Positions 1,316 to 21,649 of a stretch of DNA of 24,956 bases are shown piece after piece. The notes under the pieces were generated by a model that worked only from the letters and a program-made list of their open reading frames with translations, searched no databases and was not told where the DNA came from. The position numbers and the translations under genes are program-made. Positions within the stretch are counted from its first letter, which is position 1; every line of letters begins with the position of its first letter. The stretch is from a virus (lineage: Duplodnaviria; Heunggongvirae; Uroviricota; Caudoviricetes), in IMG/VR virus record IMGVR_UViG_2923292180_000001, one strand, 5' to 3'.

Positions 1316-1334
1316 TAGTTAGTGTGGCTTTTAG

Positions 1335-1586: not shown

Positions 1587-1658
1587 CGATTTCTTTATCT
1601 CTTACATCAGACGAGCGCCGGTTGCAGAATACCAGTCACAACCGGCGACAGTTGAACA

Positions 1659-3692: not shown

Positions 3693-3711
3693 AAAACTCT
3701 CGAGGGCAAAG

Positions 3712-3882
3712 GTGAAGAAACCTGCTGTGGTTGATCCGGACCTTATCTGGTCATCACCTGACGGAGAAATACGTCGCTACGACAGTCGCCTAAACATAAT
3801 CTGTCGCGAGTGCCGGAAGAGCGAAGTTATGCAGCGCATACTGGCTTTCTATCAGGGTAATTTTCAGGACGTGGCGCAGTGA
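3712..3882 (+). CDS. Small hypothetical protein (about 56 aa from GTG at 3712), coupled to the downstream methyltransferase remnant
   Basis: Open frame 3616..3882; GTG at 3712 is the first start that does not overlap the divergent exonuclease gene; its stop TGA (3880-3882) overlaps the GTG start of the next ORF (GTGA). Start choice uncertain. Confidence 0.3.
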   Translation: MKKPAVVDPDLIWSSPDGEIRRYDSRLNIICRECRKSEVMQRILAFYQGNFQDVAQ

Positions 3883-4325
3883 GTGCACCGGCAACCATTC
3901 TTGATATGTGCTGTGGCAGCCGCATGTTCTGGTTCGATAAGTCTGACGAACGGGCGATATTCAGCGATATCAGAAAAGAAGGATACACATTACGCAATGG
4001 GAGACGCTTGATTATCAGCCCTGACATTATCGCAGATTTTCGTGCATTATCATTTGCAGACGCATCTTTTTCGATGGTTGTATTAGACCCTCCGCATCTT
4101 GAGAGTGTTGGTGATAACGCCTGGATGGGAAAGAAATATGGACGGCTGAATAAAGATGCCTGGCGTGATGATTCGCGACAGAGATTTAAAGAAGCCTTTC
4201 GGGTGTTGAGGCCGCACGGCGTTCTGATTTTTTAATGGAATGAAACGCAAATACCGGTAAGCCAGATTCTGGCACTGACAGACAGAAAACCTGTTATCTG
4301 TCAACGAACAGGGAAAAAACGATAA
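3879..4325 (+). pseudogene. SAM-dependent DNA methyltransferase remnant (DPPH motif) broken by an in-frame TAA
   Basis: 118-aa ORF with a glycine-rich SAM-binding-like segment (LDMCCGS) and catalytic-type motif VVLDPPHL; in-frame TAA at 4233-4235 is followed by 29 further sense codons (WNETQIPVSQILALTDRKPVICQRTGKKR) ending at 4325. Confidence 0.55.
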
Positions 4326-4497
4326 AACCCACTGGATTATTTTTATGAAAGAGGCATCCAGTGAGTAGATTCGTAAGGCTACAGATACGTATATCTGAAT
4401 AATTAAATTCAGTTCTGTAAATAAAATTTAATCCTTAACCGGATGGATTTCTGCACCCTCAGAACATCAGGAGGCCGCCCGAAAGGGCGGTAGTGAA

Positions 4498-4680
4498 ATG
4501 CGAAAGTTCAAAATTATTATTGAAACGGGAATAGCTGGTGGAGATTTTGAGGATGTATTCGAAGTGGACGATGACGCAACACCTGAGGAAATTCATGACG
4601 GAGCATAAGAAATTTTCTTTAACTACTGCAATTACTCATACCACGAAATAAAAGACGATGAGGAAGAACAAAGTGGCTGA
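4498..4680 (+). pseudogene. Short ORF broken by an in-frame TAA (35 codons, TAA, 23 codons); possible decayed prophage gene
   Basis: ATG 4498; MRKFKIIIETGIAGGDFEDVFEVDDDATPEEIHDGA, TAA at 4606-4608, then EIFFNYCNYSYHEIKDDEEEQSG and TGA at 4678-4680; preceded by AGGAGG plus an 18-nt GAAA-loop hairpin. Confidence 0.3.
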
Positions 4681-4845
4681 TTTTTGTTAAGCTAAATATA
4701 ACATCAGTTTTGAAGAGCGGGATGAACTATTAATGGACTATGGTGAGTTACGCGGTGGAAGTGCTGCTGATGTCGAATCCTAGCGTGATGACTATGAAGC
4801 GGGAAAAACTCCGGTCGAAGCATATTGTGATGAGTGGGGCGATGA

Positions 4846-5133
4846 ATGAGCGAGATTAATTATCAGGAAGGGCATGAAACGGCGGGGCAAGCAAAACCAG
4901 TGGCATGGCGATATCGCTACGTGAAAAAAGGCGTTACGGACTTTCAGGGGAAGTAGTGGTCTGGTGACTGGAAATATGTACCGAAAAAAGAGGATTGTAA
5001 CGACAGGCCGAACTATCAAATTCAGGCCTTATTCACTGCCTCACCAGTCCCAGTTACATCAGAAGAACTGGTTAAAGCTGTGCACTTTTATGAACAACTA
5101 AAACGCGAAAATCCACCAACATCCGGCAACTAG
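4846..5133 (+). pseudogene. Hypothetical prophage ORF (95 codons) broken by a single in-frame amber codon
   Basis: ATG 4846; 36 sense codons (MSEINYQEGHETAGQAKPVAWRYRYVKKGVTDFQGK), TAG at 4954-4956, then 58 sense codons in the same frame (WSGDWKYVPKKEDCNDRPNYQIQALF...ENPPTSGN) to TAG at 5131-5133. Confidence 0.4.
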
Positions 5134-5387
5134 ATTAATGGATTAACTATGTCGGTTAAACGACCAGCCAACTGAAAAAGCGGAAACCTGATTACAGGTT
5201 GCCAGATAAGGCAATGAGCTACCTGGCGCGGAACGGACTGATAAGTATGGGGAATGTTTTACGATGAACCTTTAGACTAAAGAGTTTGTAACGCTATGTA
5301 AGTGATTTTTTCTGGTTTAGATATTTATATGTCCGGCCAAATTGAGGTGTGTTTAAATGTAATTGCACATTGATTGTAGGAGGAATA

Positions 5388-5567
5388 ATGAAAAACGCAT
5401 TGCAGTTTTTGTTTGTTGCGTTCTGGTTGTTCGCATCATGTATGCCCATCATCTTCACAGCAAGGTATATGGAAAAAGTTGATGTTTTGATATTAATATT
5501 TGGATATATAAATGCCCTTTTTTTAGGGGTGTTCATGGCGGTCATGTGCATTGAATACTGGCGGTAA
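5388..5567 (+). CDS. Small hydrophobic protein (59 aa, two predicted transmembrane segments) in an AT-rich islet
   Basis: ATG 5388 preceded by SD-like TAGGAGGA at 5377-5384; product MKNALQFLFVAFWLFASCMPIIFTARYMEKVDVLILIFGYINALFLGVFMAVMCIEYWR; surrounding DNA is markedly AT-rich. Confidence 0.45.
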   Translation: MKNALQFLFVAFWLFASCMPIIFTARYMEKVDVLILIFGYINALFLGVFMAVMCIEYWR

Positions 5568-5840
5568 ATACAGCGAACTCCATTGGTTTAGTTGGATATT
5601 TACTGTGCTGGACAAAAACGGTTTGCGGGGAAATCTTAGTTAAGTAGAATGACTGCGGGTGCTTGAGGCTATCTGCCTCGGGCATGGACACCAACGGCAG
5701 ATAGAGAAAAGCCCCAGTTAACATTACGCGTCCTGCAAGACGCTTAACATTAATCTGAGGCCAATTTCATGCTAGACACATGTAGGTTAGCCTCTTACGT
5801 GCCGAAAGGCACGGAGAAGCAGGCTATTGTTAACACCAAG

Positions 5841-7458
5841 CTGTAATGTCCCCTTTGAACCATTCTAAAATGTCCCCAGACAATTCTCTGGGGGATTTTT
5901 CATGATCAAAGAGACTGTTACGATGAGTCATAAGGAACTCCACCGACTTCAGATTATTCAGGAACAAGCTGCGGCACGCATTGGCATTTCTATTCGGCAG
6001 GTTAAACGTCTGGTGCAACGGTATAGAAATGAAGGGCCTTCTGGTCTGGTTTCCCACCGACGTGGAAAGCGTCCTAATAATTCCTTTTCTACTGAATTCA
6101 GAGCAACAGTAATTTCACTCCTCAAAGGCCGTTACGCTGATTTTGGACCTACGTTTGCGTGCGAAAAATTGCGCGAGATACACGGTTTATCTTTATCCGT
6201 TGAAACTCTCAGAAAGTGGATGATAGAAGAGGGGTTATGGCGTGAACGCCGTCGTAAAATTGCCCGTATATATCAACGCCGCATGCGACGACCATCTTAC
6301 GGTGAACTGATCCAGATTGATGGCTCACCTCATGACTGGTTTGAAAATCGAGGCCCCAGATGTACACTGATCGTTTTCATTGATGATGCCACCAGTGCGT
6401 TGATGGCGTTGCGTTTTGTGCCTGCTGAAACAACCCGGGCTTACATGGAAACCCTCCGGGGTTACCTTAATGATCATGGCGTACCGCTCGCTCTCTACTC
6501 TGATAGACACAGTATATTCAGGGTAAATAACCCAGAGCGGGAAGGTGAGCTGACCCAGTTCACTCGTGCGATAAAGACACTGGGCATCGAGCCAATCCAT
6601 GCCAACAGCCCGCAGGCAAAAGGGCGGGTAGAGCGCGCCAATCAGACACTACAGGACAGGCTGGTCAAAGAAATGCGGCTTCAGAATATCAGTGATATTG
6701 AAACAGCAAATGCATGGTTGCCGACCTTTATTGAAGCCTATAACAACCGGTTCGCTACGTCGCCTCGTACTACTGATAATGCTCATCTTGATGTGCACCA
6801 TTCTGAAGAGGAACTGGGTTATATCTTCAGCCTACAGGCGAAGCGCGTTCTGTCTAAAAATCTCACTTTCCAGTACAAAAGCAGTGCGTTTCAGGTACGC
6901 AGTGAGGGCCGGGGATATCGACTTAGGCATTCGGTTGTTACTGTATGCGAGAACTTTGACGGTGAAATTAACGTTCTGTATGACGGGAAAGCGCTGGGCT
7001 GGGAAAAGTATGTTGATGGCCCGGAGCCTATACCACTGGATGATGAAAAGAGTGTCCATGAACGAGTGGATAATGCCCGTATTGATTTACGCTCAAAATA
7101 CTATGTTAAACCTAAAGCTGACCATCCCTGGCTTACGCGCCGAACGCAAAGTCATCAGCAAGTTAAGCCCCCGAAGTTACCTAAAAAGAAGCCTGATCCC
7201 GATAAAAAAGATTGAAACCAAGATCGATTCGGTTGAGTGCATATCCATTCATAGGGTAGATTCTTAAGTCGCGTTTCTGGTGTTCATTTTCGGGTGGTTT
7301 GTTACTTGTTTTACCGGGGATATGCCAGAAACGCGCTGAGTCAGTCTGGGCGGTGCGCGTAATGAGGCGTTATGGTAAATAGCCTATGCTAATGTCCGCT
7401 AAGAGCAAGAAGCGGAAGTTGGCAGTTTTGTGGACTGTCCCCACAAAAGTGACTACAG
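5841..7458 (+). mobile_element. Insertion sequence carrying the ISNCY-like transposase; boundaries approximate
   Basis: Single transposase ORF flanked by non-coding arms with short palindromes (CCCCAGA..TCTGGGG near 5875-5893; TTTGTGG..CCACAAA near 7427-7449). No convincing terminal inverted repeats or target duplication could be defined by eye. Confidence 0.3.
5902..7215 (+). CDS. DDE (rve-type) transposase, ISNCY/IS1202-like
   Basis: 437-aa ORF with N-terminal helix-turn-helix (ISIRQVKRLVQRY) and integrase-core signature (..DGSPHDWF.., ..YSDRHSIF.., ..SPQAKGRVERANQTLQD..). Family assignment is from memory. Confidence 0.75.
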   Translation: MIKETVTMSHKELHRLQIIQEQAAARIGISIRQVKRLVQRYRNEGPSGLVSHRRGKRPNNSFSTEFRATVISLLKGRYADFGPTFACEKLREIHGLSLSVETLRKWMIEEGLWRERRRKIARIYQRRMRRPSYGELIQIDGSPHDWFENRGPRCTLIVFIDDATSALMALRFVPAETTRAYMETLRGYLNDHGVPLALYSDRHSIFRVNNPEREGELTQFTRAIKTLGIEPIHANSPQAKGRVERANQTLQDRLVKEMRLQNISDIETANAWLPTFIEAYNNRFATSPRTTDNAHLDVHHSEEELGYIFSLQAKRVLSKNLTFQYKSSAFQVRSEGRGYRLRHSVVTVCENFDGEINVLYDGKALGWEKYVDGPEPIPLDDEKSVHERVDNARIDLRSKYYVKPKADHPWLTRRTQSHQQVKPPKLPKKKPDPDKKD

Positions 7459-7610
7459 AAATAGTTGCAATTCATAATTGATCATGGGTTGTCAGTTAAA
7501 CTCGTGGCGATTTAAATAGACTAATTGGGAGTGCGTCCATTACTTATATCTTGTAATGTTAACTATCAGAAATGATACAAAGATAATATGTCTTTAAAGA
7601 AAAGGCTGAT

Positions 7611-7637
7611 GGCGAAAAGTGGCCCGATGAGGGCCAC
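7611..7637 (-). terminator. Rho-independent terminator downstream of flxA
   Basis: Perfect 7-bp stem GTGGCCC/GGGCCAC (7619-7625, 7631-7637) with 5-nt loop, followed on the minus-strand transcript by UUUUCGCC; 15 bp beyond the flxA stop. Confidence 0.55.
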
Positions 7638-7651
7638 AATACGGCTGTCAC

Positions 7652-7984
7652 TTAGACGTAAATATCAATGGTGCCAGCGGTATTTGTATCGTCTTTTTTC
7701 TCTTCTTTTTTATCAGGCTGAACTGTCGCGTCTTCATTCTTTTTCTCTGCCTGCTGCCTTAACAACTGCTCCAGTTGAGCCCAGAGGCTTTCAATTTGCT
7801 TCTGTACCAATGCAGCCATTTCTTTTTTCTGCTGTGTCGTCATCCCCTCTTCCGATGAGATTTTCCCAAGCTTTTCAGTCAGCACCTGAATTTGTCTTGT
7901 GATTTTGGCTATTTCTGATGTTCCTTCCGGGGCGGAGTTGTTTGAAATAACGGTTGAGGTATTTCCCTGAATTGTGACAGACAT
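7652..7984 (-). CDS. flxA: FlxA (sigma-28-dependent prophage protein)
   Basis: 110-aa product MSVTIQGNTSTVISNNSAPEG...TIDIYV recognised as FlxA; a canonical sigma-28 promoter lies immediately upstream. Confidence 0.9.
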   Translation of the reverse strand: MSVTIQGNTSTVISNNSAPEGTSEIAKITRQIQVLTEKLGKISSEEGMTTQQKKEMAALVQKQIESLWAQLEQLLRQQAEKKNEDATVQPDKKEEKKDDTNTAGTIDIYV

Positions 7985-8006
7985 AGATTTCTCCTTTTAA
8001 AAAAGC

Positions 8007-8033
8007 ACTATCGGCATGCACAAAAAAATCTTT
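8007..8033 (-). promoter_or_regulatory. Sigma-28 (FliA) promoter of flxA
   Basis: Minus-strand sequence TAAAGATT-N11-GCCGATAG (-35 at 8026-8033, -10 at 8007-8014) matches the FliA consensus TAAAGTTT-N11-GCCGATAA with correct spacing; sits 23-49 bp upstream of the flxA ATG. Confidence 0.75.
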
Positions 8034-8186
8034 AATCGTATTTCTTGTGTCATTAATTGTTTGATGTTCAGATTGTTTTCCTCGCGGGCTGGCGCGCCTC
8101 AGAAAGTAAAGCTTGTTGACAGGGGTAAACGTTCGGCAATAATTTTCTGCCGCATGCGGGTGTTGCATAAAACGTGTTACGTTCCT

Positions 8187-8492
8187 TTATCGACAGGTCA
8201 GGTCACCGCTCACCCGCCGACGAGAAAGCAACACTGACATGCTAAAGCAAAAAATAGATGAATAAGTTGAGTTGTGCATATGTAGCCTGACCGTCACAAA
8301 GTATATGGTGTCTGTACCAGTAAGATGATGGCCGGACTCTTTAAAAACGAGCTGACCTGCACAATACAGGATGGACTTAGCAATGGCTGCTCCTGGCACA
8401 AAGCGGACAGTGATCACCGTTCTTACGACTACTTTCTGACTTCCTTCGTGACTTGCCCTAAGCATGTTGTAGTGCGATACTTGTAATGACAT
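8187..8492 (-). CDS. ydfV: Hypothetical prophage protein YdfV-like (101 aa)
   Basis: ORF of the length and position expected between flxA and relB in Qin; its start codon overlaps the relB operator, so the true start and expression are uncertain. Confidence 0.45.
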   Translation of the reverse strand: MSLQVSHYNMLRASHEGSQKVVVRTVITVRFVPGAAIAKSILYCAGQLVFKESGHHLTGTDTIYFVTVRLHMHNSTYSSIFCFSMSVLLSRRRVSGDLTCR

Positions 8493-8504
8493 TTGTAATT
8501 ACAA
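8481..8504 (+). promoter_or_regulatory. relBE operator (relO-like inverted hexad repeats)
   Basis: TTGTAATgacaTTTGTAATTACAA immediately upstream of the relB SD and ATG (8517); the TTGTAAT/ATTACAA repeats are those of the RelB-RelE operator. Confidence 0.6.
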
Positions 8505-8516
8505 GAGGTGTAAGAC

Positions 8517-8756
8517 ATGGGTAGCATTAACCTGCGTATTGACGATGAACTTAAAGCGCGTTCTTACGCCGCGCTTGAAAAAATGGGTGTAACTCCTTCT
8601 GAAGCGCTTCGTCTCATGCTCGAGTATATCGCTGACAATGAACGCTTGCCGTTCAAACAGACACTCCTGAGTGATGAAGATGCTGAACTTGTGGAGATAG
8701 TGAAAGAACGGCTTCGTAATCCTAAGCCAGTACGTGTGACGCTGGATGAACTCTGA
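8517..8756 (+). CDS. relB: RelB antitoxin
   Basis: 79-aa product MGSINLRIDDELKARSYAALEKMGVTPSEALRLMLEYIADNERLPF... recognised as RelB; stop overlaps relE start (TGATG). Confidence 0.95.
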   Translation: MGSINLRIDDELKARSYAALEKMGVTPSEALRLMLEYIADNERLPFKQTLLSDEDAELVEIVKERLRNPKPVRVTLDEL

Positions 8757-9043
8757 TGGCGTATTTTCTGGATTTTGACGAGCGGGCACTAAAGGAATGG
8801 CGAAAGCTGGGCTCGACGGTACGTGAACAGTTGAAAAAGAAGCTGGTTGAAGTACTTGAGTCACCCCGGATTGAAGCAAACAAGCTCCGTGGTATGCCTG
8901 ATTGTTACAAGATTAAGCTCCGGTCTTCAGGCTATCGCCTTGTATACCAGGTTATAGACGAGAAAGTTGTCGTTTTCGTGATTTCTGTTGGGAAAAGAGA
9001 ACGCTCGGAAGTATATAGCGAGGCGGTCAAACGCATTCTCTGA
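8756..9043 (+). CDS. relE: RelE mRNA interferase toxin
   Basis: 95-aa product MAYFLDFDERALKEWRKLGSTVREQLKKKLVEVLESPRIEANKLRG... recognised as RelE; translationally coupled to relB. Confidence 0.95.
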   Translation: MAYFLDFDERALKEWRKLGSTVREQLKKKLVEVLESPRIEANKLRGMPDCYKIKLRSSGYRLVYQVIDEKVVVFVISVGKRERSEVYSEAVKRIL

Positions 9044-9114
9044 ACCAAAGCATGACATCTCTGTTTCGCACCGAAGGTGACACTTCTGCTTTGCGTTGAC
9101 AGGAGAAGCAGGCT

Positions 9115-9270
9115 ATGAAGCAGCAAAAGGCGATGTTAATCGCCCTGATCGTCATCTGTTTAACCGTCATAGTGACGGCACTGGTAACGAGGAAAGACCT
9201 CTGCGAGGTACGAATCCGAACCGGCCAGACGGAGGTCGCTGTCTTCACAGCTTACGAACCTGAGGAGTAA
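9115..9270 (+). CDS. hokD: Hok-family membrane toxin HokD (RelF); below the ORF-track size cutoff
   Basis: 51-aa ORF MKQQKAMLIALIVICLTVIVTALVTRKDLCEVRIRTGQTEVAVFTAYEPEE: single transmembrane segment plus conserved Hok C-terminus; immediately downstream of relE. Confidence 0.85.
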   Translation: MKQQKAMLIALIVICLTVIVTALVTRKDLCEVRIRTGQTEVAVFTAYEPEE

Positions 9271-9339
9271 GAGACCCGGCGGGGGAGAAATCCCTCGCCA
9301 CCTCTGATGTGGCAGGCATCCTCAACGCACCCGCACTTA

Positions 9340-9370
9340 ACCCGCTTCGGCGGGTTTTTGTTTTTATTTT
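9340..9370 (+). terminator. Rho-independent terminator of the relB-relE-hokD operon
   Basis: AACCCGC-TTCG-GCGGGTT hairpin followed by TTTTGTTTTTATTTT, about 70 bp after the hokD stop. Confidence 0.7.
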
Positions 9371-9486
9371 CAACGCGTTTGAAGTTCTGGACGGTGCCGG
9401 AATAGAATCAAAAATACTTAAGTAGCGCGCAGGGATAAGAGGGATGGTCCCTTAAAGGGGAGAGCTAATTATCCGGAAGGATTCTG

Positions 9487-9738
9487 ATGATGAACATCGA
9501 AGAACTGCGTAAAATTTTTTGTGAAGATGGCCTCTATGCTGTGTGCGTTGAAAATGGAAATCTTGTTAGTCATTACCGCATTATGTGTTTGCGAAAGAAT
9601 GGGGCTGCGTTAATTAATTTTGTGGATGCTCGGGTCACGGACGGATTTATCTTGCGCGAAGGTGAGTTTGTCACTTCATTACAGGCATTGAAAGAGATCG
9701 GAATAAAAGCTGGCTTTTCTGCTTTTTCAGGAGAATAA
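9487..9738 (+). CDS. rem: Rem (prophage protein, 83 aa)
   Basis: Product MMNIEELRKIFCEDGLYAVCVENGNLVSHYRIMCLRKNGAALINFVD... matches Rem from memory in length and position between hokD and ydfU. Confidence 0.75.
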   Translation: MMNIEELRKIFCEDGLYAVCVENGNLVSHYRIMCLRKNGAALINFVDARVTDGFILREGEFVTSLQALKEIGIKAGFSAFSGE

Positions 9739-9804
9739 ACTCATCTACAATCTTGCGCGGGGCTGAACTCCCGCTGAGTAACACCGTGCCACCGGAGAAA
9801 ACCG

Positions 9805-10083
9805 ATGGCACGCAACGCAAAATATTACAATTCTGATAATTCGCCCGTTCTTGCCTGCACGCACGGGCGGTATTCTCACGCATTCAAGTCTGAATGGTTC
9901 CAGCACCCTCCATGCACTGCAGAACAGGCCGAATGGCTGATTCATTCTTACCGCAGGCGCGGGTTCGAGGTTAAGAAAGCTCTCAGTCTCGACTATCGGC
10001 ACTGGATAATCTCTGTCAGGCTGCCTTATTCCGAACGCCCACCACGTGCGTCCCGCACTTTCCAGCAACGGATCTGGAGGTAA
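9805..10083 (+). CDS. Hypothetical 92-aa protein between rem and ydfU
   Basis: ATG 9805 with upstream GGAGAAAA; its TAA stop (10081-10083) lies inside the SD (GGAGGT) of ydfU, 1 nt before the ydfU GTG start. No recognisable domain. Confidence 0.4.
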   Translation: MARNAKYYNSDNSPVLACTHGRYSHAFKSEWFQHPPCTAEQAEWLIHSYRRRGFEVKKALSLDYRHWIISVRLPYSERPPRASRTFQQRIWR

Positions 10084-10084
10084 C

Positions 10085-11134
10085 GTGCGGGTATTACTTA
10101 GACCTGTTCTGGTGCCTGAGCTTGGGCTGGTGGTCCTTAAGCCGGGCCGTGAATCCATACAGATATTTCATAATCCTCGAGTGCTGGTGGAACCGGAACC
10201 AAAAAGCATGCGTAATCTGCCATCCGGAGTCGTTCCTGCCGTTCGCCAGCCGCTGGCGGAAGACAAAACATTGCTGCCGTTTTTTAGTAACGAACGGGTG
10301 ATTCGTGCTGCTGGCGGCGTTGGCGCATTGTCCGACTGGCTATTACGTCATGTTACATCCTGCCAGTGGCCTAATGGCGATTACCATCACACTGAAACAG
10401 TCATTCACCGTTATGGTACCGGCGCAATGGTGTTGTGCTGGCACTGCGACAACCAACTGCGTGACCAGACATCGGAATCACTGGAGCTGCTTGCTCAACA
10501 AAATCTGACAGCATGGGTGATTGACGTCATCCGTCACGCAATAAGCGGTACGCAGGAGCGGGAATTATCTTTGGCTGAATTATCCTGGTGGGCGGTCTGC
10601 AATCAGGTGGTGGATGCACTACCTGAGGCTGTATCGCGTCGTTCGCTGGGATTACCAGCGGAAAAAATCTGCTCGGTGTACCGCGAAAGCGACATCGTAC
10701 CGGGAGAGCAGACCGCCACCAGCATATTGAAACAACGCACAAAAAATCTTGCACCGTTGCCTTACGCCCACCAGCAACAAAAATCACCACAGGAAAAGAC
10801 GGTGGTAAGCATCACCGTTGATCCAGAGTCTCCGGAATCTTTCATGAAGCTGCCTAAACGTCGCCGCTGGGTTAAGGAGAAATACACACGTTGGGTTAAG
10901 ACACAGCCGTGTGCTTGCTGCGGTATGCCAGCCGACGATCCGCATCATCTGATTGGTCACGGGCAGGGCGGAATGGGAACAAAAGCACATGATCTCTTTG
11001 TGTTGCCTTTGTGCAGAAAGCATCACAACGAGCTGCATACGGATACAGTGGCATTTGAAGATAAGTATGGCTCCCAACTGGAGCTGATATTTCGTTTTAT
11101 CGATCGCGCGCTGGCAATTGGCGTACTGGCGTAA
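10085..11134 (+). CDS. ydfU: YdfU (DUF968-family protein with C-terminal Cys/His cluster)
   Basis: GTG 10085 preceded by GGAGGT gives 349 aa (the ORF-track frame extends to GTG 10046); C-terminus has CACCGMPADDPHHLIGHGQGGMGTKAHDLFVLPLCRKHHNELH. Confidence 0.8.
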   Translation: MRVLLRPVLVPELGLVVLKPGRESIQIFHNPRVLVEPEPKSMRNLPSGVVPAVRQPLAEDKTLLPFFSNERVIRAAGGVGALSDWLLRHVTSCQWPNGDYHHTETVIHRYGTGAMVLCWHCDNQLRDQTSESLELLAQQNLTAWVIDVIRHAISGTQERELSLAELSWWAVCNQVVDALPEAVSRRSLGLPAEKICSVYRESDIVPGEQTATSILKQRTKNLAPLPYAHQQQKSPQEKTVVSITVDPESPESFMKLPKRRRWVKEKYTRWVKTQPCACCGMPADDPHHLIGHGQGGMGTKAHDLFVLPLCRKHHNELHTDTVAFEDKYGSQLELIFRFIDRALAIGVLA

Positions 11135-11147
11135 GTGGAGAACGAGC

Positions 11148-11900
11148 ATGAACCTTGAAGCCTTACCAAAATATTACTCCCCAAAATCTCCAAAATTGAG
11201 CGATGACGCTCCAGCGACAGGCACCGGTTGTTTAACAATTACGGATGTAATGGCAGCGCAGGGGATGGTGCAGTCGAAAGCACCACTTGGGTTGGCCTTA
11301 TTTCTGGCAAAAGTTGGTGTTCAGGACCCTCAGTTTGCGATTGAAGGCCTGCTAAATTACGCGATGGCACTGGATAACCCGACATTGAACAAATTGAGTG
11401 AAGAAATCCGGTTACAGATTATTCCTTACCTCGTGAGTTTTGCCTTTGCTGATTACTCCAGGTCTGCGGCAAGTAAGGCTCGCTGTGAGCATTGTTCAGG
11501 TACGGGATTTTATAATGTATTGCGCGAAGTGGTGAAACACTACAGACGCGGGGAATCTGTAATCAAGGAAGAATGGGTGAAGGAACTATGTCAGCATTGC
11601 CATGGTAAGGGCGAAGCCAGCACAGCGTGCAGAGGGTGTAAGGGTAAAGGGATTGTTCTGGATGAAAAAAGAACCCGGTTTCATGGCGTACCGGTATATA
11701 AGATTTGTGGGCGTTGTAATGGAAACCGGTTTAGTCGTTTACCGACCACGCTGGCACGACGTCATGTCCAGAAGCTGGTACCAGACCTGACCGATTATCA
11801 GTGGTATAAGGGGTATGCGGACGTCATTGGTAAACTGGTAACAAAGTGCTGGCAGGAAGAAGCATACGCGGAAGCGCAATTGAGGAAGGTGACGAGATAA
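11148..11900 (+). CDS. quuQ: Late-gene antitermination protein Q
   Basis: 250 aa from ATG 11148 (ORF frame opens at 11118); Cys/His-rich zinc-finger region (CEHCSGTG..CQHCHGKG..CRGCKGKG..CGRCNG); lies upstream of a PR'-like promoter and terminator. Confidence 0.85.
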   Translation: MNLEALPKYYSPKSPKLSDDAPATGTGCLTITDVMAAQGMVQSKAPLGLALFLAKVGVQDPQFAIEGLLNYAMALDNPTLNKLSEEIRLQIIPYLVSFAFADYSRSAASKARCEHCSGTGFYNVLREVVKHYRRGESVIKEEWVKELCQHCHGKGEASTACRGCKGKGIVLDEKRTRFHGVPVYKICGRCNGNRFSRLPTTLARRHVQKLVPDLTDYQWYKGYADVIGKLVTKCWQEEAYAEAQLRKVTR

Positions 11901-11930
11901 ATGATTTTTGCTGAAGATGGCGACATGATG

Positions 11931-11960
11931 TTTGCATTTTTCAAAAAATATGGATAAAAT
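11931..11960 (+). promoter_or_regulatory. Late promoter PR'-like element with downstream pause/qut-like CAACGATGGG
   Basis: TTTGCA (-35, 11931-11936), 18-bp spacer, TAAAAT (-10, 11955-11960), followed by TTTTCAACGATGGG, which closely parallels the lambda PR' initial transcribed region (...TGACTCAACGATGGG). Confidence 0.55.
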
Positions 11961-12005
11961 TTTTTCAACGATGGGCTTTGTATACCCGACGTTAAGAAAA
12001 AGTAG

Positions 12006-12034
12006 AAAACCCGCTGATGAGCGGGTTTTGTGCT
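12006..12034 (+). terminator. tR'-like rho-independent terminator downstream of the late promoter
   Basis: AAAACCCGCT-gatg-AGCGGGTTTTGTGC: 6-bp GC-rich stem with a T-run, about 50 nt downstream of the putative PR' start. Confidence 0.65.
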
Positions 12035-12321
12035 TTAAATGGGGCAATGGTAATGTTGAATCTCATCCCGGGACTCATGTCTGTTAACTTATTATTTAGC
12101 TGGTGACTTGGTTATTTGCCTGATGTTTAAAATGTTTTCTTCCAGTACAATGTCCCTAAACACAATGAGTCTGCTTATTATATTATTAGCAGAGCTATTA
12201 CGGCCAAAGTACAGCATAAGCTTTTAAAGCCAATCAACCAGTCATCAAGACAGACGGGGTTATTCATAAAAACTCTCCATGTGTGATCCGATGGGGCCTG
12301 AAATTAAAGCTTTAATATAGC

Positions 12322-12534
12322 TCATGAAAGGTAAACATTGGCAGCTGAAGGGCCACGCAGACCATTTATCCGGCAAAATTCCACGCGTAATCCGGTGGTA
12401 ATTTCTTCTGCATCGCGGAGATTGAGCGCTGAAACATGAAGCTGGACATCGATACGACCATCGGATGGGGTGATAAGACCCTTGCCGCTTTTGCCGTCAA
12501 AGGTTTTGACAATTCCTGTCATTTTACGGGACAA
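12322..12534 (-). CDS. cspF: Cold-shock-like protein CspF
   Basis: 70-aa product [70 protein letters not shown]; divergent from cspB. Confidence 0.9.
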
Positions 12535-12684
12535 AAAAATTCCTTAATACTGATAACTTGGCGCACTATACACACGTTCCTGAAGAAAGCTATAGTTTTT
12601 TGATGGGGTTGAAGATGGCTGGATGTCTAAAATAAACATTGCTTCATATGTTCAACTATGCGTTAATGATTGCGTCGGTTTGAA

Positions 12685-12834
12685 GAACAGACGATATACG
12701 AAGTAGTTTACTAAAGCAGTTCTCATTTCAGGTGTTATTCACTTATTCCTTCTTTGAGTCTCTCCAATTAAGTACGAAGTCGTTTCTGTTATGCAAACCA
12801 TTTATGCCGAAAGGCTCAAGTTAAGGAATGTAGA
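12685..12834 (+). promoter_or_regulatory. cspB 5' untranslated leader with cold-box-like element and cspA-type upstream box
   Basis: AACAGACGATATACGAAGTAGTTTACTAAAGCAG resembles the cspA cold box (TGACGTACAGACCATTAAAGCAG); GCCGAAAGGC lies just upstream of the SD (AAGGAATG) before the cspB ATG, as in cspA. Recalled from memory, not aligned. Confidence 0.4.
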
Positions 12835-13050
12835 ATGTCAAATAAAATGACTGGTTTAGTAAAATGGTTTAACGCTGATAAAGGTTTCGGCTTTATTTCT
12901 CCTGTTGATGGTAGTAAAGATGTGTTTGTGCATTTTTCTGCGATTCAGAATGATAATTATCGAACCTTATTTGAAGGTCAAAAGGTTACCTTCTCTATAG
13001 AGAGTGGTGCTAAAGGTCCTGCAGCAGCAAATGTCATCATTACTGATTAA
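12835..13050 (+). CDS. cspB: Cold-shock protein CspB
   Basis: 71-aa product [71 protein letters not shown] with RNP1/RNP2 motifs. Confidence 0.95.
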
Positions 13051-13331
13051 AATTCATCGCTCGTCTGTATACGATAACGAAGAAGGCTGATGCCTGAGTA
13101 GAGATACGGACAGAGTAGTGAATATTGGATCTCTTTAATAAAAAGTAAGGAGGTCCAATACATGAAACAATGGCTAGCATATTTGGCAAAATCTTAATCA
13201 GGAAAAGTATGCTAACCATTGTGGTGAAGTGCAGGTTTGCTGCATGAATAGTTTTACAGCAGAAGCTAACTGCTGGCATGGCAAAACAAAGTGCGTAAGT
13301 GGATGACTCCCACAAAAAGCACCACAATCTC

Positions 13332-13357
13332 AAACCCGCTCAGGCGGGTTTTTTATT
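13332..13357 (+). terminator. Hairpin terminator between cspB region and the convergent small zinc-ribbon gene
   Basis: AAACCCGC-TCAG-GCGGGTTTTTTATT; strong on the plus strand, weaker but possible for the minus-strand gene ending at 13414. Confidence 0.5.
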
Positions 13358-13413
13358 ATCTGCTTTAAATATATTATTAAAATATAAAAAATACTTGTTA
13401 CTAATAAAATCAA

Positions 13414-13584
13414 TCAGGCTACAGCTTTAAGATTTGTCTGGAATACTTTGTTGCAATGAGGGCAGATCAAAAGGGCACCTTTTTGTACTCTTGAAAAACT
13501 GTGTTCTGACTCTTGGGTGCAGTTTGGGCAGGAACATTTAACGAGATAATTACGGCGTGATTTTGAGTTTTTACGTTCTGACAT
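13414..13584 (-). CDS. Small zinc-ribbon protein (56 aa, two CxxC pairs); possibly YnfU-like
   Basis: ATG at 13584 with upstream AGGAAAAG; product MSERKNSKSRRNYLVKCSCPNCTQESEHSFSRVQKGALLICPHCNKVFQTNLKAVA (CPNC...CPHC). Gene name is a guess from memory. Confidence 0.5.
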   Translation of the reverse strand: MSERKNSKSRRNYLVKCSCPNCTQESEHSFSRVQKGALLICPHCNKVFQTNLKAVA

Positions 13585-13803
13585 AGGCTTTTCCTGTATA
13601 AATGGCCGTATACAGTACACTAAATATGAAAACATTTCTCGTATTATTATTTTATATATGACTTTCTTTCAAAATAATTACCCACATTTTTAATGTGTAT
13701 GTTTTTTTAGCGCCGTTGAGAACAACGTGTGCTGTCAAAACTCCCCCGTAGACTCCGATCTTTTCAAACATATTGCACCATCCGTGTACATCGGGGTGAG
13801 GAT

Positions 13804-14019
13804 ATGAAATCAATGGATAAGTTAACAACAGGTGTTGCCTATGGCACATCGGCGGGTAATGCTGGTTTCTGGGCATTGCAGTTACTCGATAAAGTAACTC
13901 CGTCACAGTGGGCTGCAATCGGTGTGCTGGGTAGCCTGGTTTTTGGCCTGCTGACGTATCTGACAAATCTTTATTTCAAGATTAAAGAAGACAGGCGTAA
14001 GGCTGCGAGAGGAGAGTAA
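13804..14019 (+). CDS. essQ: Class II holin (phage 21 S21 pinholin type) with dual-start motif
   Basis: 71 aa from ATG 13804 ([10 protein letters not shown]..., second Met at codon 4 as in holin/antiholin dual starts); two transmembrane segments and charged C-terminus ([13 protein letters not shown]). Confidence 0.85.
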
Positions 14020-14023
14020 TCCA

Positions 14024-14331
14024 ATGACTCAAGACTATGAACTGGTTGTGAAAGGAGTCCGTAATTTTGAGAATAAAGTTACGGTAACTGTAGCCTTACA
14101 GGACAAAGAACGCTTTGACGGTGAAATTTTTGACCTGGATGTCGCCATGGACCGTGTTGAAGGAGCTGCGCTGGAGTTTTATGAGGCAGCAGCCAGAAGG
14201 AGCGTCCGGCAAGTCTTCCTGGAAGTAGCAGAAAAATTGTCAGAAAAAGTTGAGTCTTATCTGCAGCATCAGTACTCCTTTAAGATTGAAAATCCTGCCA
14301 ATAAGCACGAGCGTCCTCATCATAAATATCT

Positions 14332-14335
<4 letters not shown>
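14024..14335 (+). CDS. ydfR: YdfR (DUF1327 prophage protein, 103 aa)
   Basis: Sits between holin and endolysin; stop overlaps the endolysin start (ATGA). Confidence 0.75.
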
Positions 14336-15359
<1,024 letters not shown>

Positions 15360-15721
15360 GGTAATATTAAATCGGAACATTTACATCGCGGAATGTAAAA
15401 TTTAAATAAAAAGGACTCTTCCATGAGCCAAAATTCCTGAAATCTTAAGGGTAAGATAAAAGGTCTTAATCAGAATGACACGTTTTATTAATAAATAAAG
15501 CCATTCTTTCATTGCTGTGTTTTTCTTTACAAAAGTAATCCTTGCTATGGGTGGTTAATCATGCGTTAATGGTGTTCTGGTTTGTTACAAATTTATCTGA
15601 AGCAGTCATTGTTATAATTTTATTATTTGTACCTCTTGAGATTTCCTTGTTGGTTTTTCTCTCTGATATTTTTTTTCGGACCATTCTGCCCAAGGGCTAA
15701 TTTCTTCAAAAGGTAATAATT

Positions 15722-15934
15722 ATGTCTAACAAAATGACTGGTTTAGTGAAATGGTTTAACCCTGAAAAAGGTTTTGGTTTCATCACGCCGAAAGATGGCA
15801 GCAAAGATGTGTTTGTCCATTTCTCAGCAATTCAGAGCAACGATTTCAAAACATTAACTGAGAATCAGGAAGTTGAATTTGGTATTGAGAACGGACCTAA
15901 AGGTCCTGCCGCTGTTCATGTAGTGGCGCTTTGA
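15722..15934 (+). CDS. cspI: Cold-shock protein CspI
   Basis: 70-aa product [70 protein letters not shown]; long AT-rich leader upstream. Confidence 0.95.
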
Positions 15935-16138
15935 GGTAGACAATATTACAAACCATATTCACTTTAGATGCCCGTGTTGTCATGGTTCCCAGTATAGAAC
16001 ATCATCTTTTGATGTTTCTGACATGAATCCTTTCGGGGCAAAATGTATCTTTTGTAAATCAATGATGATTACATTTGATAATATTTCACAATACTTAAAT
16101 GCCAGCCGTCTGTCGTTGGATTTAAAAAAGTGAAAATG

Positions 16139-16162
16139 AAGGCTCCTTCGGGAGCTTTTTTG
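16139..16162 (+). terminator. Rho-independent terminator downstream of the cspI region
   Basis: AAGGCTCC-TTCG-GGAGCTTTTTTGC; placed 6 bp after the stop (16131-16133) of a zinc-ribbon reading frame. Confidence 0.55.
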
Positions 16163-16205
16163 CTTGGTGTCTATTCGATGGATACTCACATACTACGGTA
16201 ACATC

Positions 16206-16436
16206 ATGAAAAAAATCATAGTTTTTTTTAACTCTGAACCAGCAGTGGTAGTGCCAGCGATGACTGGAGTTAACACCATCATGCGTGAATATCCAAATGG
16301 CGAAAAAACACACCTTACTGTAATGGCCGCAGGGTTTCCATCTCTGACCGGAGATCATAAAGTCATTTATGTAGCCGCGGATCGACATGTTACTTCAGAA
16401 GAAATTCTGGAAGCAGCAATAAGGCTCTTGAGTTGA
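16206..16436 (+). CDS. Hypothetical 76-aa protein
   Basis: ATG 16206 (ORF-track frame opens at 16164); product MKKIIVFFNSEPAVVVPAMTGVNTIMREYPNGEKTHLTVMAAGFPSLTGDHKVIYVAADRHVTSEEILEAAIRLLS; no recognisable domain. Confidence 0.4.
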   Translation: MKKIIVFFNSEPAVVVPAMTGVNTIMREYPNGEKTHLTVMAAGFPSLTGDHKVIYVAADRHVTSEEILEAAIRLLS

Positions 16437-16579
16437 TTTGATGCTATTGCATTGATAATTCAGGAAAATTCTCTTTGTCTGTTTGTGTAAAATTTAGACT
16501 ATCGTATGTTGATTATTGCGATGTTTCATCTTATCTTTTACACGTTTGCTGATCCTACCCACGTAATATGGACACAGGC

Positions 16580-17446
16580 CTAAGCGAGGTTCTTGTTTTC
16601 AAATTGTTCCGGACTGAGGCCGCCACACCAACTGTGCCGCCGCCACCGATTGTAATCACATTCGATATAATTAAACACCGTTGCCCGCATTATTTCCCGG
16701 CTGATAAAGTGTTCTCCATGGATACATTCCACTTTCAGCGAATGAAAGAAGCTTTCCACGCAGGCATTATCGTAGCAGCAACCTTTTGCGCTCATACTTC
16801 CACGCAGATTATGCCGCTTCAGTTGCGCCTGATAATCTGCTGAACAGTACTGGCCTCCACGGTCCGTGTGAACGATAACGTTCCGGGGCCTCTTACGCCG
16901 CCACAGCGCCATCTGCAGGGCATCGCAGGCCAGTTGCGCCGTCATGCGTGGCGACATTGACCAGCCAATAACGGCACGTGACCACAGGTCAATGACCACT
17001 GCCAGATACAGCCAGCCTTCATCTGTACGTAAGTACGTGATGTCTCCTGCCCACTTCTGGTTCGGGCCACTGGCGTAAAAATCCTGCTCCAACAGATTTT
17101 CTGACACAGGCAGGCCGTGTGCGCGGTAGCTGACCGGGCTGAACTTCCGGGAGGCCTTTGCCCTCAGTCCCTGACGGCGCAGGCTTGCCGCCACGGTTTT
17201 TACGTTAAAGGGGTAACCCTGAGCACGCAGTTCATCCGTCAGGCGTGGGGCACCGTAACGCTGTTTTGACCGGGTAAAAGCCGCGAGGACAACGCTGTCG
17301 CAGTGTTGGCGGAACTGCTGACGCGTGCTTATCCTTGTCCGCCGCTGACACCACGTATACCAGCCGCTGCGGGCCACCCGGAGCACGCGGCACATTGCTT
17401 TGATGCTGAACTCAGCCTGATGTTTTTCAATAAAGACATACTTCAT
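16580..17446 (-). CDS. insF: IS3 transposase OrfB (InsF), DDE catalytic domain
   Basis: 288-aa product [38 protein letters not shown]... recognised as IS3 InsF; overlaps the orfA stop (ATGA), as in the frameshift-fused IS3 arrangement. Confidence 0.9.
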
Positions 17447-17751
17447 TTCAGGCGCTTCGCGAAGTATGTCGCGGCCTTTTGGAGGATAGCCAGCTCTTCA
17501 TCCCGTTCTGCCAGCTGGCGTTTGAGACGTGCAATCTCGGTAGACATCTCCAGTTCACGTTCAGAAGACGTCTGCTGATTTTGCTGTTTACTGCGCCAGT
17601 TGTAGAGTTGTGATTCATACAGGCTGAGTTCACGGGCTGCGGCAGTAACACCGATGCGTTCAGCAAGCTTCAGGGCTTCACTGCGAAATTCAGGCGAATG
17701 CTGTTTACGGGGTTTTTTACTGGTTGATACTGTTTTTGTCATGTGAGTCAC
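17443..17751 (-). CDS. insE: IS3 transposase OrfA (InsE), helix-turn-helix / leucine zipper
   Basis: 102-aa [58 protein letters not shown]... recognised as IS3 InsE. Confidence 0.9.
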
Positions 17752-17868
17752 CTCTGACTGAGAGTTTACTCACTTAGCCGCGTGTCCACTATTGCTGGGT
17801 AAGATCATGCACCATATAATCGACTTACTGTGTAACTGGAAAGTCATAACAGACTAAAAGAGGAAATG

Positions 17869-21074: not shown

Positions 21075-21649
21075 TGGCATTCAGAATGAGTGAACAACCA
21101 CGGACCATAAAAATTTATAATCTGCTGGCCGGAACTAATGAATTTATTGGTGAAGGTGACGCATATATTCCGCCTCATACAGGTCTGCCAGCAAACAGTA
21201 CCGATATTGCACCGCCAGATATTCCGGCAGGCTTCGTGGCTGTTTTCAACAGTGATGAGGCATCGTGGCATCTCGTTGAAGATCATCGGGGTAAAACGGT
21301 TTATGACGTGGCTTCCGGCGACGCGTTATTTATTTCTGAACTCGGTCCGTTACCGGAAAATGTTACCTGGTTATCGCCGGGAGGGGAATATCAGAAGTGG
21401 AACGGCACAGCCTGGGTGAAGGATACGGAAGCAGAAAAACTGTTCCGGATCCGGGAGGCGGAAGAAACAAAAAACAGCCTGATGCAGATAGCCAGTGAGC
21501 ATATAGCGCCGCTTCAGGATGCTGTGGATCTGGAGATCGCAACGGAGGAAGAAACCTTGTTGCTGGAAGCCTGGAAAAAGTATCGGGTGTTGCTGAACCG
21601 TGTTGATACATCAACTGCACCGGATATTGAATGGCCAGCACTGCCGTAG
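21074..21649 (+). CDS. tfaQ: Tail fibre assembly protein Tfa
   Basis: 191-aa product [71 protein letters not shown]... is nearly identical to lambda Tfa from memory. Confidence 0.9.

Follow-up and report, generated by a model that had tools for sequence, protein, structure and literature searches.

Gene content of the Qin late region

The 24,956-nt stretch analysed here (the window; coordinates are positions of the whole stretch, and + and - are its strands) was identified as the E. coli Qin cryptic prophage. The features from the antiterminator gene quuQ to the lysis genes are collected in Table 1. In a Pfam search QuuQ matched PF03589 at E = 3.6e-54 and also PF00684, and it aligned end to end with lambda Q at 33% identity (E = 2e-40). 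The Q proteins of SfV, 2H10, mEp460 and an Stx2c phage showed 90-94% identity to QuuQ. Relative to lambda Q, QuuQ carries a 48-aa insertion with extra CXXCXGXG zinc motifs. Because this insertion falls in the zinc-ribbon arm, which is the DNA-contacting arm of lambda Q, DNA recognition by QuuQ may differ from that by lambda Q.

Table 1. Features of the Qin late region in window coordinates.
Feature	Position	Strand	Description and basis
quuQ (ydfT)	11148-11900	+	lambda-family antiterminator Q, 250 aa; Pfam PF03589 and K-12 annotation
PR'(Qin) -35 hexamer TTGCAT	11932-11937	+	promoter scan and alignment with lambda
PR'(Qin) spacer, 17 nt, TTTTCAAAAAATATGGA	11938-11954	+	position of lambda Q-binding element; presumed QuuQ site
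PR'(Qin) -10 hexamer TAAAAT	11955-11960	+	promoter scan and alignment with lambda
Predicted +1 (A at 11967) and predicted sigma70-dependent pause element	11967-11975	+	AACGAT plus GGG (AACGATGGG)
tR'(Qin)	12006-12037	both directions	10-bp stem hairpin (12006-12029) and U-tract TTTTGTGCTTT
Variable cargo (moron) slot	12030-13790		between tR' and holin ribosome-binding region
ynfS	12178-12267	-	29-aa small protein, downstream of cspF, antisense to late transcription; K-12 annotation and translation
cspF	12322-12534	-	antisense to late transcription; PF00313 and annotation
cspB with cspA-type 5'UTR thermoregulator	12674-13066 (CDS 12835-13050)	+	sense to late transcription; Rfam RF01766 (158.8 bits), PF00313
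Second GC-rich hairpin	13332-13351		followed on the + strand by TTTTTTATTAT
ynfU	13414-13584	-	zinc-ribbon small protein, convergent with late transcription; PF23499
Likely ynfU promoter TTGAAA-18-AATAAT	13672-13643	-	promoter scan
Lysis cassette	13804-15359	+	PF04971, PF07041, PF00959 and annotation
essQ (holin)	13804-14019	+	PF04971
ydfR	14024-14335	+	
rrrQ	14332-14865	+	
rzpQ	14862-15359	+	

A preliminary description of this DNA had placed a PR'-like promoter (11931-11960), a lambda-like pause element and a tR'-type terminator (to 12034) after quuQ, with cspF (-), cspB (+) and a convergent zinc-ribbon gene, here ynfU, lying between this module and a holin gene starting at 13804, about 1.8 kb away. 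Every element named was found, either exactly there or within 1-2 bases. The genes were confirmed by Pfam and K-12 annotation, and the separation was measured as 1,903 nt from the quuQ stop to the essQ start and ~1,770 nt from the terminator to essQ. The small gene ynfS was absent from that earlier list.

This gene order is already in the public K-12 annotation, and the cargo slot is a textbook moron position, also that of Shiga toxin genes. In the literature searched on quuQ/ydfT with cspB/cspF/essQ, neither a late promoter of Qin nor csp expression driven by Q was described, and transcriptome papers mentioning these genes were uninformative. Because no paper describing the cassette was found, the Qin cassette is at most an unreported example of a type that is very well known. 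Most of what follows is of little importance and its value is modest: the late promoter, pause element and terminator of Qin, which had no annotation, now have base-level positions and a link to an in vivo 3' end in published data, and the exact cargo-swap junction of the QuuQ-type Q family is marked by the terminator hairpin.

Promoter, pause element and terminator downstream of quuQ

PR'(Qin) lies 32 nt past the quuQ stop. The promoter scanner returned TTTGCA-18-TAAAAT at 11931-11960, and the register matching lambda is TTGCAT-17-TAAAAT at 11932-11960. The -35 hexamer TTGCAT is kept in 10 of 11 related modules. The spacer, identical to that of lambda at 11/17 positions and nearly invariant across QuuQ-type modules, is presumed to be the QuuQ binding site. 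The 10-mer CAACGATGGG was found at 11966-11975, and the start of AACGATGGG lies exactly 6 nt past the -10 hexamer, a register shared with lambda PR'. AACGAT at +1 to +6 and the following GGG are identical to lambda +1 to +9 and are also conserved in the relatives. The 10-mer CAACGATGGG is not significant alone (1.5 matches expected with one mismatch allowed); the weight for the pause element is carried by the register and by the full-module alignment. An ungapped alignment from -35 to +9 with lambda PR' gave 32/44 matches, and this was the sole position among 49,824 in the stretch to reach that score.

An accessory feature of the lambda loading complex is a -35-like TTGACT that lies 1 nt upstream of the -10-like element that induces the pause. 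This is missing in Qin, which has TTTTTT-C-AACGAT where lambda has TTGACT-C-AACGAT (3/6 match). Repositioning of sigma region 4 has been described for the lambda-type loading complex (PMC9388147). Because the initially transcribed sequence past +9 differs from lambda, the pause position in Qin is not predictable. The terminator is also closer to +1 in Qin (~40-70 nt) than in lambda (~180-190 nt).

The RNA from +1 to the terminator folded at -30.4 kcal/mol (z = -6.7), the hairpin with its U-tract gave z = -6.7 to -7.0, and the predicted PR' RNA ending at tR' is ~67 nt. In published K-12 Term-seq data a 3' end was present at 1,642,356 (-), corresponding to window 12033 (+), in all three growth conditions. 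RNA with this 3' end could be quuQ mRNA instead of a PR' transcript. The equivalent hairpin of SfV is annotated as a terminator. For covariation in the tR' stem, no signal above shuffles was obtained, the stem being merely conserved.

The terminator scanner reported the hairpin only for the minus strand, on which the tail reads TTTTCTACTTTTTC. Moreover, the hairpin folds equally well on either strand and ynfS ends ~150 nt before it, all of which favours a role mainly in terminating the convergent cspF-ynfS transcript, with the promoter-like sequence upstream being coincidental. We consider this reading very improbable, for the reported in vivo 3' end lies on the late-transcription strand, the reverse of what this reading would predict, and coordinate searches of the curated K-12 list found no minus-strand (window) 3' end near the hairpin. 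A K-12 Rho region antisense to quuQ at window 11374 (-) may reflect minus-strand transcripts that pass the hairpin. Both promoter and pause element agree with lambda, in exact register, and the hairpin accompanies the Q module in SfV, mEp460, an Stx2c phage, SCU-123 and 7_15_5C, all of which are without cspF/ynfS and lose homology right after the hairpin. Because the minus strand was reported by the scanner and a U-tract is also present on the + strand, the hairpin can act in both directions, and we retain it as tR'(Qin).

The Q-dependent regulatory cassette of the Q-lambda type is defined in PMC9388147. Its components are present here by sequence, namely a PF03589 Q, a sigma70 promoter directly downstream, a pause element and an intrinsic terminator, with lysis genes downstream on the same strand. 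Together with the lambda alignment, they support the view that what follows quuQ is a true Q-dependent cassette of the lambda family, with promoter, -10-like pause element and terminator.

Variable cargo between the terminator and the holin gene

The Q-promoter-terminator module was recovered as 11 conserved copies in phages of E. coli, Shigella and Salmonella, including SfV, mEp460 and Stx2c phages, with unrelated sequence past the hairpin. In five relatives homology breaks exactly at window 12029, at the terminator, and in three of them it restarts at 13776-13809, at the holin. Four resolved Q-to-holin gaps hold 0.67-3.0 kb of unrelated cargo. The tR' hairpin marks the exact mosaic junction where cargos swap in the QuuQ-type Q family.

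The module of SfV is 87.6% identical to that of Qin over 11700-12029 and 91.1% over 11100-12029; the corresponding values for mEp460 are 86.1% and 90.4%. As in Qin, the holin of both phages is preceded by 1.7-2.3 kb of cargo; in SfV the terminator is annotated at the equivalent position and a second one just before S. Their cargo differs from that of Qin, comprising a DNA methylase and small ORFs in sense and no cold-shock genes. In Stx-converting phages, accessory genes (stx, tRNAs, nanS-p) occupy the same slot between Q/PR'/tR' and S, and the Stx2c phages have the same module and a Q 94% identical to QuuQ. In the Stx2c locus examined, however, all large ORFs are in sense and are toxin or metabolic genes, whereas two of the three cargo units of Qin are antisense and cold-shock-domain genes are present. 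Morons, stx among them, classically sit between Q/PR'/tR' and S, and the accessory genes of Stx phages are co-transcribed from PR' on induction (PMC8065619).

The cspF(-)/cspB(+) cargo between Q and holin was also found in the deposited phages 2H10, Tritos, HannyBb, PhiR42_1 and PhiR63_1 with 95-99.9% identity. Deposited phage genomes thus retain the layout, among them at least one ICTV-classified species (2H10). We take 2H10 to be a plaque former isolated from wastewater. Among 5,426 E. coli genomes, 2,302 carried the module, which in 1,400 of these runs on into the cspF/cspB cargo; the ~900 with the module but without the full junction had other cargo, a 258-bp deletion variant or truncated matches.

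The GC content of the cargo is 38.2%, versus 50.5% for ydfU-quuQ and 47.1% for the lysis genes. Features by which morons are described (PMC8065619) were compared with the insert. Its base composition differs from that of the surrounding phage genome, its DNA is missing from otherwise homologous phages, and its units have their own signals, cspB having a full-length 5'UTR and 3' ends and ynfU the hairpin at 13332-13351, with promoters that are predicted; expression would thereby not depend on induction. Because related modules carry unrelated cargo and the five phages share the cold-shock cargo, the 1.75 kb is read as a moron of low GC content inserted at the classic site between tR' and S. These units would have been acquired independently, as self-contained pieces, in a recombination-permissive tR'-holin slot: an antisense cspF-ynfS pair, a sense cspB equipped with a promoter, 5'UTR and 3' ends of its own, and an antisense ynfU.

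The preliminary description had implied that the gap is remarkable and that S normally follows tR' directly, and had proposed a comparison with lambdoid phages. That comparison, once carried out, did not bear the premise out. In lambda, the Q stop is 676 nt from S. With QuuQ-type modules the Q-to-holin gap is 553 nt in Salmonella phage 118970_sal3, 672 nt in SCU-123, 1,722 nt in SfV, 1,796 nt in F1055, 2,340 nt in mEp460, 3,024 nt in 7_15_5C (nanS-p) and >3.9 kb in an Stx2c phage (methylase, tRNAs, stx2c). Cargo between tR' and S is thus commonplace, and the gap in Qin, with 1.77 kb of cargo before the holin versus ~0.4 kb in lambda (from coordinates), is not unusual. Of the earlier interpretation, the genuine lambda-family Q-dependent cassette stood and the remarkable separation did not; the layout of a late control switch followed by cold-shock genes is real but ordinary. 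We regard it as likely that this segment represents a late regulatory cassette from a lambdoid prophage of the Qin type, with an ordinary moron insertion 3' of it. A host-benefit gene also lies between Q and holin in the cryptic lambdoid prophage DLP12 (quuD-nmpC-essD) and in phage PA-2 (lc porin gene), with nmpC antisense to late transcription; both the Q family and the cargo differ from those of Qin.

Two candidate features in the distal part of the cargo were rejected. An isrK match at 13276-13354 scored 18 bits against an Rfam threshold of 50 and was attributed to chance terminator similarity. The possibility that 13055-13805 is the leftover of a second, holin-linked Q cassette was dropped, as distant BLAST against phages returned nothing beyond the five cargo-bearing phages already named and some unrelated fragments.

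Proposed late transcription and a probable short PR'-tR' RNA

The sequence elements, lambda homology, conservation, mosaic boundaries and in vivo 3' end at tR' are observed, and from them we infer that the promoter is active, that the complex pauses, that QuuQ loads and that transcription reads through to the lysis genes. RNA polymerase would start at PR'(Qin) at ~11967, and sigma70 would re-bind the -10-like AACGAT on the non-template strand, so that the complex pauses. When QuuQ is absent, termination at 12006-12037 would release the ~67-nt RNA. When present, QuuQ would bind the conserved -35/-10 spacer and load onto the paused complex, which would become resistant to termination. The modified polymerase would then pass tR' and ~1.75 kb of low-GC cargo, with its Rho-dependent sites near the 5' end of cspB and its hairpin at 13332-13351, and go on to transcribe essQ-ydfR-rrrQ-rzpQ. 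This proposal shares with the lambda Q/PR'/qut/tR' system (PF03589) a Q gene followed directly by a sigma70 promoter and an intrinsic terminator followed by lysis genes.

Upstream of essQ, only ~28 nt are common to other holin contexts, so no conserved promoter is apparent between the cassette and essQ. For that reason QuuQ-modified transcription would have to cross cspF, ynfS and ynfU in antisense and cspB in sense, which supports the course of late transcription through cspF and cspB proposed earlier. The further idea that cold-shock expression is coupled to late transcription follows from the architecture and is doubtful. cspB has its own cspA-type 5'UTR and, in K-12, Rho-dependent attenuation at its 5' end, which bears on this idea; its own 3' ends are present in uninduced K-12.

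The cargo may instead have uncoupled the lysis genes from Q, with PR'-tR' left vestigial or as a mere source of small RNA and essQ, if expressed, served by a local promoter. In this proposal transcription is blocked by tR', by Rho-dependent sites, by the hairpin at 13332-13351 and by head-on transcription of cspF and ynfU. In K-12, a Rho-dependent 3' end lies at window 12755, inside the cspB 5'UTR, and a region of Rho termination at window 12852, at the start of cspB. The second hairpin is strong on the + strand and, because TTTTTTATTAT comes after its stem there, an obstacle for late transcription; on the - strand it terminates ynfU in vivo, with a K-12 3' end at 1,641,060 (+), equal to window 13329 (-). 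A promoter-like AT-rich site was returned by the promoter scan upstream of essQ at 13651-13678. Moreover, the prophage is cryptic, and dicA, dicC and dicB were searched for within the stretch and were not present, so no prophage lytic switch is here to drive quuQ; QuuQ may never be produced via the phage switch in this host. Nevertheless we judge uncoupling to be improbable. The same layout is carried by the five cargo-bearing phages, phages with the same Q bear from 1.7 kb to >3.9 kb of cargo, in SfV even with the second annotated terminator before S, and the ~28 nt common to holin contexts leave no conserved holin promoter apparent. Once loaded with Q, complexes disregard terminators for thousands of base pairs (PMC9388147). 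Read-through from PR'(Qin) to the lysis genes is thus kept as the preferred reading.

K-12 probably produces a short RNA, running from PR' to tR', that has so far gone undescribed. Its main role in the lysogen could be that of a constitutive ~67-nt regulatory RNA, like StxS/lambda 6S RNA, regardless of late-gene activation. The "orphan" 3' end at tR' is abundant across the three K-12 growth conditions (counts of 55,000-123,000), the K-12 annotation has no gene at PR'-tR', and the predicted RNA has an A-rich, ARN-like stretch followed by the terminator hairpin. StxS, of the same origin and acting in trans, provides a precedent (PMC7547250), and like StxS and lambda 6S RNA the Qin RNA is predicted to be constitutive, short and ended at tR'. 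It has no sequence similarity to them, however; the segment between pause element and hairpin is not conserved among relatives, and no Rfam family matched either at the gathering threshold or at E <= 1. A regulatory function as the main role is held to be somewhat unlikely, and it is compatible with, not exclusive of, the cassette reading.

Two further possibilities concern related phages. Since QuuQ-type modules hardly differ in their QBE-like spacer, the late region of cryptic Qin could be activated in trans by a phage of the SfV, mEp460 or Stx2c type, whether resident in the same host or superinfecting it. If so, cspB would be fired in sense, cspF, ynfS and ynfU would be silenced by antisense transcription, and the Qin lysis proteins would be added. 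In 2H10-like phages, retention of the cold-shock cargo may reflect a benefit of CspB, made from the late transcript, to the expression of late genes at low temperature. These two possibilities and that of the PR'-tR' RNA as an abundant unannotated K-12 regulatory sRNA, the Qin counterpart of StxS, are taken together as unlikely.

Locus identity and the Q-dependent cassette

The window is a cryptic lambdoid prophage of Qin type from E. coli; its positions 7031-16549 are 99.96% identical to the reverse complement of Qin in K-12 MG1655. Gene names were taken from the K-12 annotation, and a Pfam scan of ydfU, quuQ, cspF, cspB, ynfU, essQ, ydfR and rrrQ confirmed each of them. This copy differs from that of K-12 in being without dicC, dicA, ydfABC, dicF, dicB and ydfD. 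Other prophage remnants replace these genes (1180-7030 and 16550-17807), annotated in a near-identical genome as integrase, excisionase, truncated exonuclease, methyltransferase and an ISNCY fragment. At 16550-17807 lies an IS3-like stretch; its match to an IS3-like element annotated in a different locus points to an IS3 insertion. The sok match, in the non-K-12-like part of the window, would make a second hok/sok-type locus besides hokD.

Features of the locus (window positions)
Feature	Position	Strand	Remark
sok antitoxin RNA	5657-5828	+	104 bits, above Rfam gathering threshold
ydfU	10085-11134	+	
quuQ/ydfT	11148-11900	+	
predicted tR' hairpin	12006-12029		10 bp, GC-rich
ynfS	12178-12267	-	
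cspF	12322-12534	-	
cspA-type 5'UTR of cspB	12674-13066		RF01766, 158.8 bits; complete, thermoregulatory
cspB	12835-13050	+	
mini-ORF	13162-13197	+	11 codons, MKQWLAYLAKS
hairpin between cspB and ynfU	13332-13351		good T-tract on + strand
ynfU	13414-13584	-	
essQ	13804-14019		followed by ydfR, rrrQ, rzpQ, cspI
second cspA-type 5'UTR	15576-15961		Rfam, 112.8 bits
IS009 RNA	21417-21615	+	221.5 bits, above Rfam gathering threshold; close to tfaQ/pinQ

QuuQ belongs to the Q-lambda family (PF03589, E = 3.6e-54) and is 33% identical to lambda Q in a full-length alignment. Unlike lambda Q, it carries a 48-aa insertion (residues about 125-172) with two extra CXXCXGXG motifs (Pfam DnaJ_CXXCXGXG match), at the position of the zinc-ribbon 'arm' region. 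In lambda Q that arm contacts DNA and sigma region 4. The zinc-ribbon arm contacts Q binding element positions 11-13 (PMC9388147). The Qs of QuuQ-type phages were 90-94% identical to QuuQ, all intact and likewise of 250 aa.

In the published definition a Q-dependent cassette comprises a Q gene, then PR', an element for sigma-dependent pausing, a terminator and the genes downstream (PMC9388147), and each sequence-defined part of it has a putative counterpart here. The promoter, pause element and terminator that the preliminary description had placed after quuQ were all found. While the promoter scanner called TTTGCA-18-TAAAAT (11931-11960), the register matching lambda is TTGCAT (11932-11937), a 17-nt spacer and TAAAAT (11955-11960), with AACGATGGG at 11967-11975, 6 bases beyond the -10 hexamer; lambda PR' reads TTGACT-17-TAAATT-6-AACGATGGG. 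From -35 to +9 the two were identical at 32/44 positions without gaps, a score reached at 1 of 49,824 positions when both window strands were scanned. The 10-mer pause element by itself was not significant, and the -35-like TTGACT beside the pause element in lambda is not conserved, its Qin counterpart being TTTTTT-C. The RNA that runs from the predicted +1 as far as the T-tract (-30.4 kcal/mol, z = -6.7) contains the tR' hairpin, with UUUUGUGCUUU behind it. Since the hairpin folds well on either strand and the scanner called the minus strand only, it can, by prediction, act in both directions.

RNA ends at this site were found in published data. A Term-seq study of K-12 (Adams et al., 2021; PMC7815308, Supplementary file 1) lists an 'orphan' 3' end at 1,642,356 on the minus strand; it was seen in 3/3 growth conditions, its read scores being 103,591, 55,368 and 123,305. 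This corresponds to window 12033, on the late-transcription strand and within the U-tract (...GCGGGUUUUGUGC); therefore an RNA of the expected strand has its 3' end at the predicted tR' when K-12 is uninduced. As a 3' end only, it fits either a PR' transcript or quuQ mRNA.

A further + strand 3' end lies at window 12201 (K-12 1,642,188, -), after a small hairpin (12170-12194) and antisense to ynfS. It appeared in 1/3 Term-seq conditions, with a score of 87,904 against 55,368 for tR' in the same condition. This implies transcription past tR' without induced Q, through leakage at tR' or from another start site. On the other strand, DirectRNA-seq with and without bicyclomycin gave a Rho termination region antisense to quuQ (window 11374, -; K-12 1,643,015, +). 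Minus-strand transcripts, possibly from the cspF/ynfS side, may pass the hairpin and be stopped by Rho in quuQ.

A variable slot between tR' and the holin gene

The last 200 nt of quuQ together with the module were found in 35 phage records, among them SfV, mEp460, Ayreon, Lys8385Vzw, fifteen Stx2c-converting phages, phiSTEC1575-Stx2k, 2H10, Tritos, HannyBb and Salmonella phages. In an 11-copy alignment the -35, spacer, -10, CAACGATGGGCTTTGTAT and the AACCCGC...GCGGGTTTT hairpin were conserved; the hairpin loop and all sequence 3' of the T-tract were unrelated. BLAST of window 11100-14400 against such loci showed homology stopping exactly at 12029 in SCU-123, 7_15_5C, SfV, Stx2c phage and mEp460, and restarting at 13776-13809 in three of the loci, those with a related holin (L004, L005 and L009). 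A variable slot is thus bounded on the left by the tR' hairpin and on the right by the holin ribosome-binding region.

Distance from Q stop to holin start
Genome	Distance	Content
Salmonella phage 118970_sal3	553 nt	one small ORF
E. coli SCU-123	672 nt	one small ORF
lambda	676 nt	reference
SfV	1,722 nt	methylase; second annotated terminator just before S
F1055	1,796 nt	two ORFs annotated as hypothetical proteins
2H10	1,896 nt	cold-shock cargo as in window
window	1,903 nt	cold-shock cargo
mEp460	2,340 nt	methylase and small ORFs
7_15_5C	3,024 nt	nanS-p type esterase
HannyBb	3,606 nt	extra AT-rich segment and cold-shock cargo
Stx2c phage	>3.9 kb	lipoprotein, methylase, two tRNAs, stx2cAB

The separation of the module from the lysis genes had been taken as notable against phages in which S directly follows tR'. 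This is not supported: across these relatives the 1.9 kb of the window is mid-range for the QuuQ-type Q family, and the Q-to-holin separation is ordinary. It is in this Q-to-S slot that stx and further morons classically sit (PMC8065619).

The cargo has a GC content of 38%, compared with 47-50% in the flanks, and it is not peculiar to a decayed prophage. Segment 12040-13790 lies whole between Q and holin at 96-99.9% identity in PhiR42_1, PhiR63_1, HannyBb and 2H10, the last an ICTV-classified species, and is present minus 258 bp in Tritos. With the same layout in deposited phage genomes, late transcription would cross cspF (antisense) and cspB (sense) there too. Among 5,426 E. coli genomes the module occurred in 2,302, of which 1,400 run on into the cargo. 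A total of 1,611 genomes hold 80% or more of the entire 11100-14400 arrangement.

The Tritos deletion is clean (window 12074-12331) and removes ynfS along with the final 10 nt of cspF, stop codon included, so ynfS and an intact cspF 3' end are dispensable for the cargo. The same deletion is suggested for E. coli genomes such as ATCC 25922, whose homology breaks off at window 12073 and which have cspF annotated under the match. In HannyBb the module occurs twice (positions 1844-2034 and 3501-3778 of the HannyBb locus). The degenerate copy directly follows Q and has a mutated -10 and pause element and a weak hairpin; the intact copy, 1.7 kb downstream behind a 57-nt Q 3'-end fragment, opens into the cspF/cspB cargo. 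The two are separated by an AT-rich segment in which a 94-aa ORF lies on the minus strand.

The proposed route of late transcription to the lysis genes

Upstream of essQ only ~28 nt are common to other holin contexts, which argues against a conserved holin promoter; the proposed read-through over the csp genes stands as the necessary route to the lysis genes. Several barriers lie on it. In K-12 a Rho-dependent 3' end falls inside the cspB 5'UTR (window 12755). The cspB ORF start coincides with a strong region of Rho termination (window 12852; Rho score 5.6, p = 1e-57), and a very abundant 3' end follows 113-115 nt past the cspB stop (window 13163-13165). For the hairpin at 13332-13351 the in vivo report is only as ynfU terminator, on the opposite strand (window 13329, -). 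QuuQ-modified polymerase would therefore need to cross tR', one further strong intrinsic terminator, one or more Rho-dependent regions and three units transcribed head-on. Q-loaded complexes disregard pause and termination sites across thousands of base pairs, so crossing such barriers is possible by published Q biology (PMC9388147). SfV and Stx phages have comparable barriers.

The end at 13163-13165 (K-12 1,641,224/6; Term-seq scores 0.6-2.5 million, class 'orphan') is among the most abundant locally. It coincides with the start codon of the mini-ORF, which is preceded by a strong AAGGAGG Shine-Dalgarno, and no U-rich terminator is present at the site; the RNA may be a processed cspB 3'UTR species.

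The cold-shock 'coupling' put forward in the preliminary description is putative and would be transcriptional only. By the cspA model, the thermosensor 5'UTR makes it doubtful that a long late transcript would yield CspB at 37 degrees C. This genome has no lytic switch upstream of quuQ, and activation through QuuQ would depend on a different promoter or on a related Q acting in trans. Public annotation already gives the gene order, and the arrangement belongs to a textbook class; our literature search found no paper on the Qin PR' cassette itself. Only the base-level placement of the cassette, its match to the published orphan 3' end and a possible StxS-like short RNA, for which StxS is the precedent (PMC7547250), are mildly new.

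Over 12332-12949, intergenic region included, the divergently oriented cspF and cspB are ~77% identical to the chromosomal cspH-cspG pair. The second cspA-type 5'UTR drives cspI, right behind the spanin genes, and with the cspF-cspB pair the late operon thus holds two separate cold-shock inserts.
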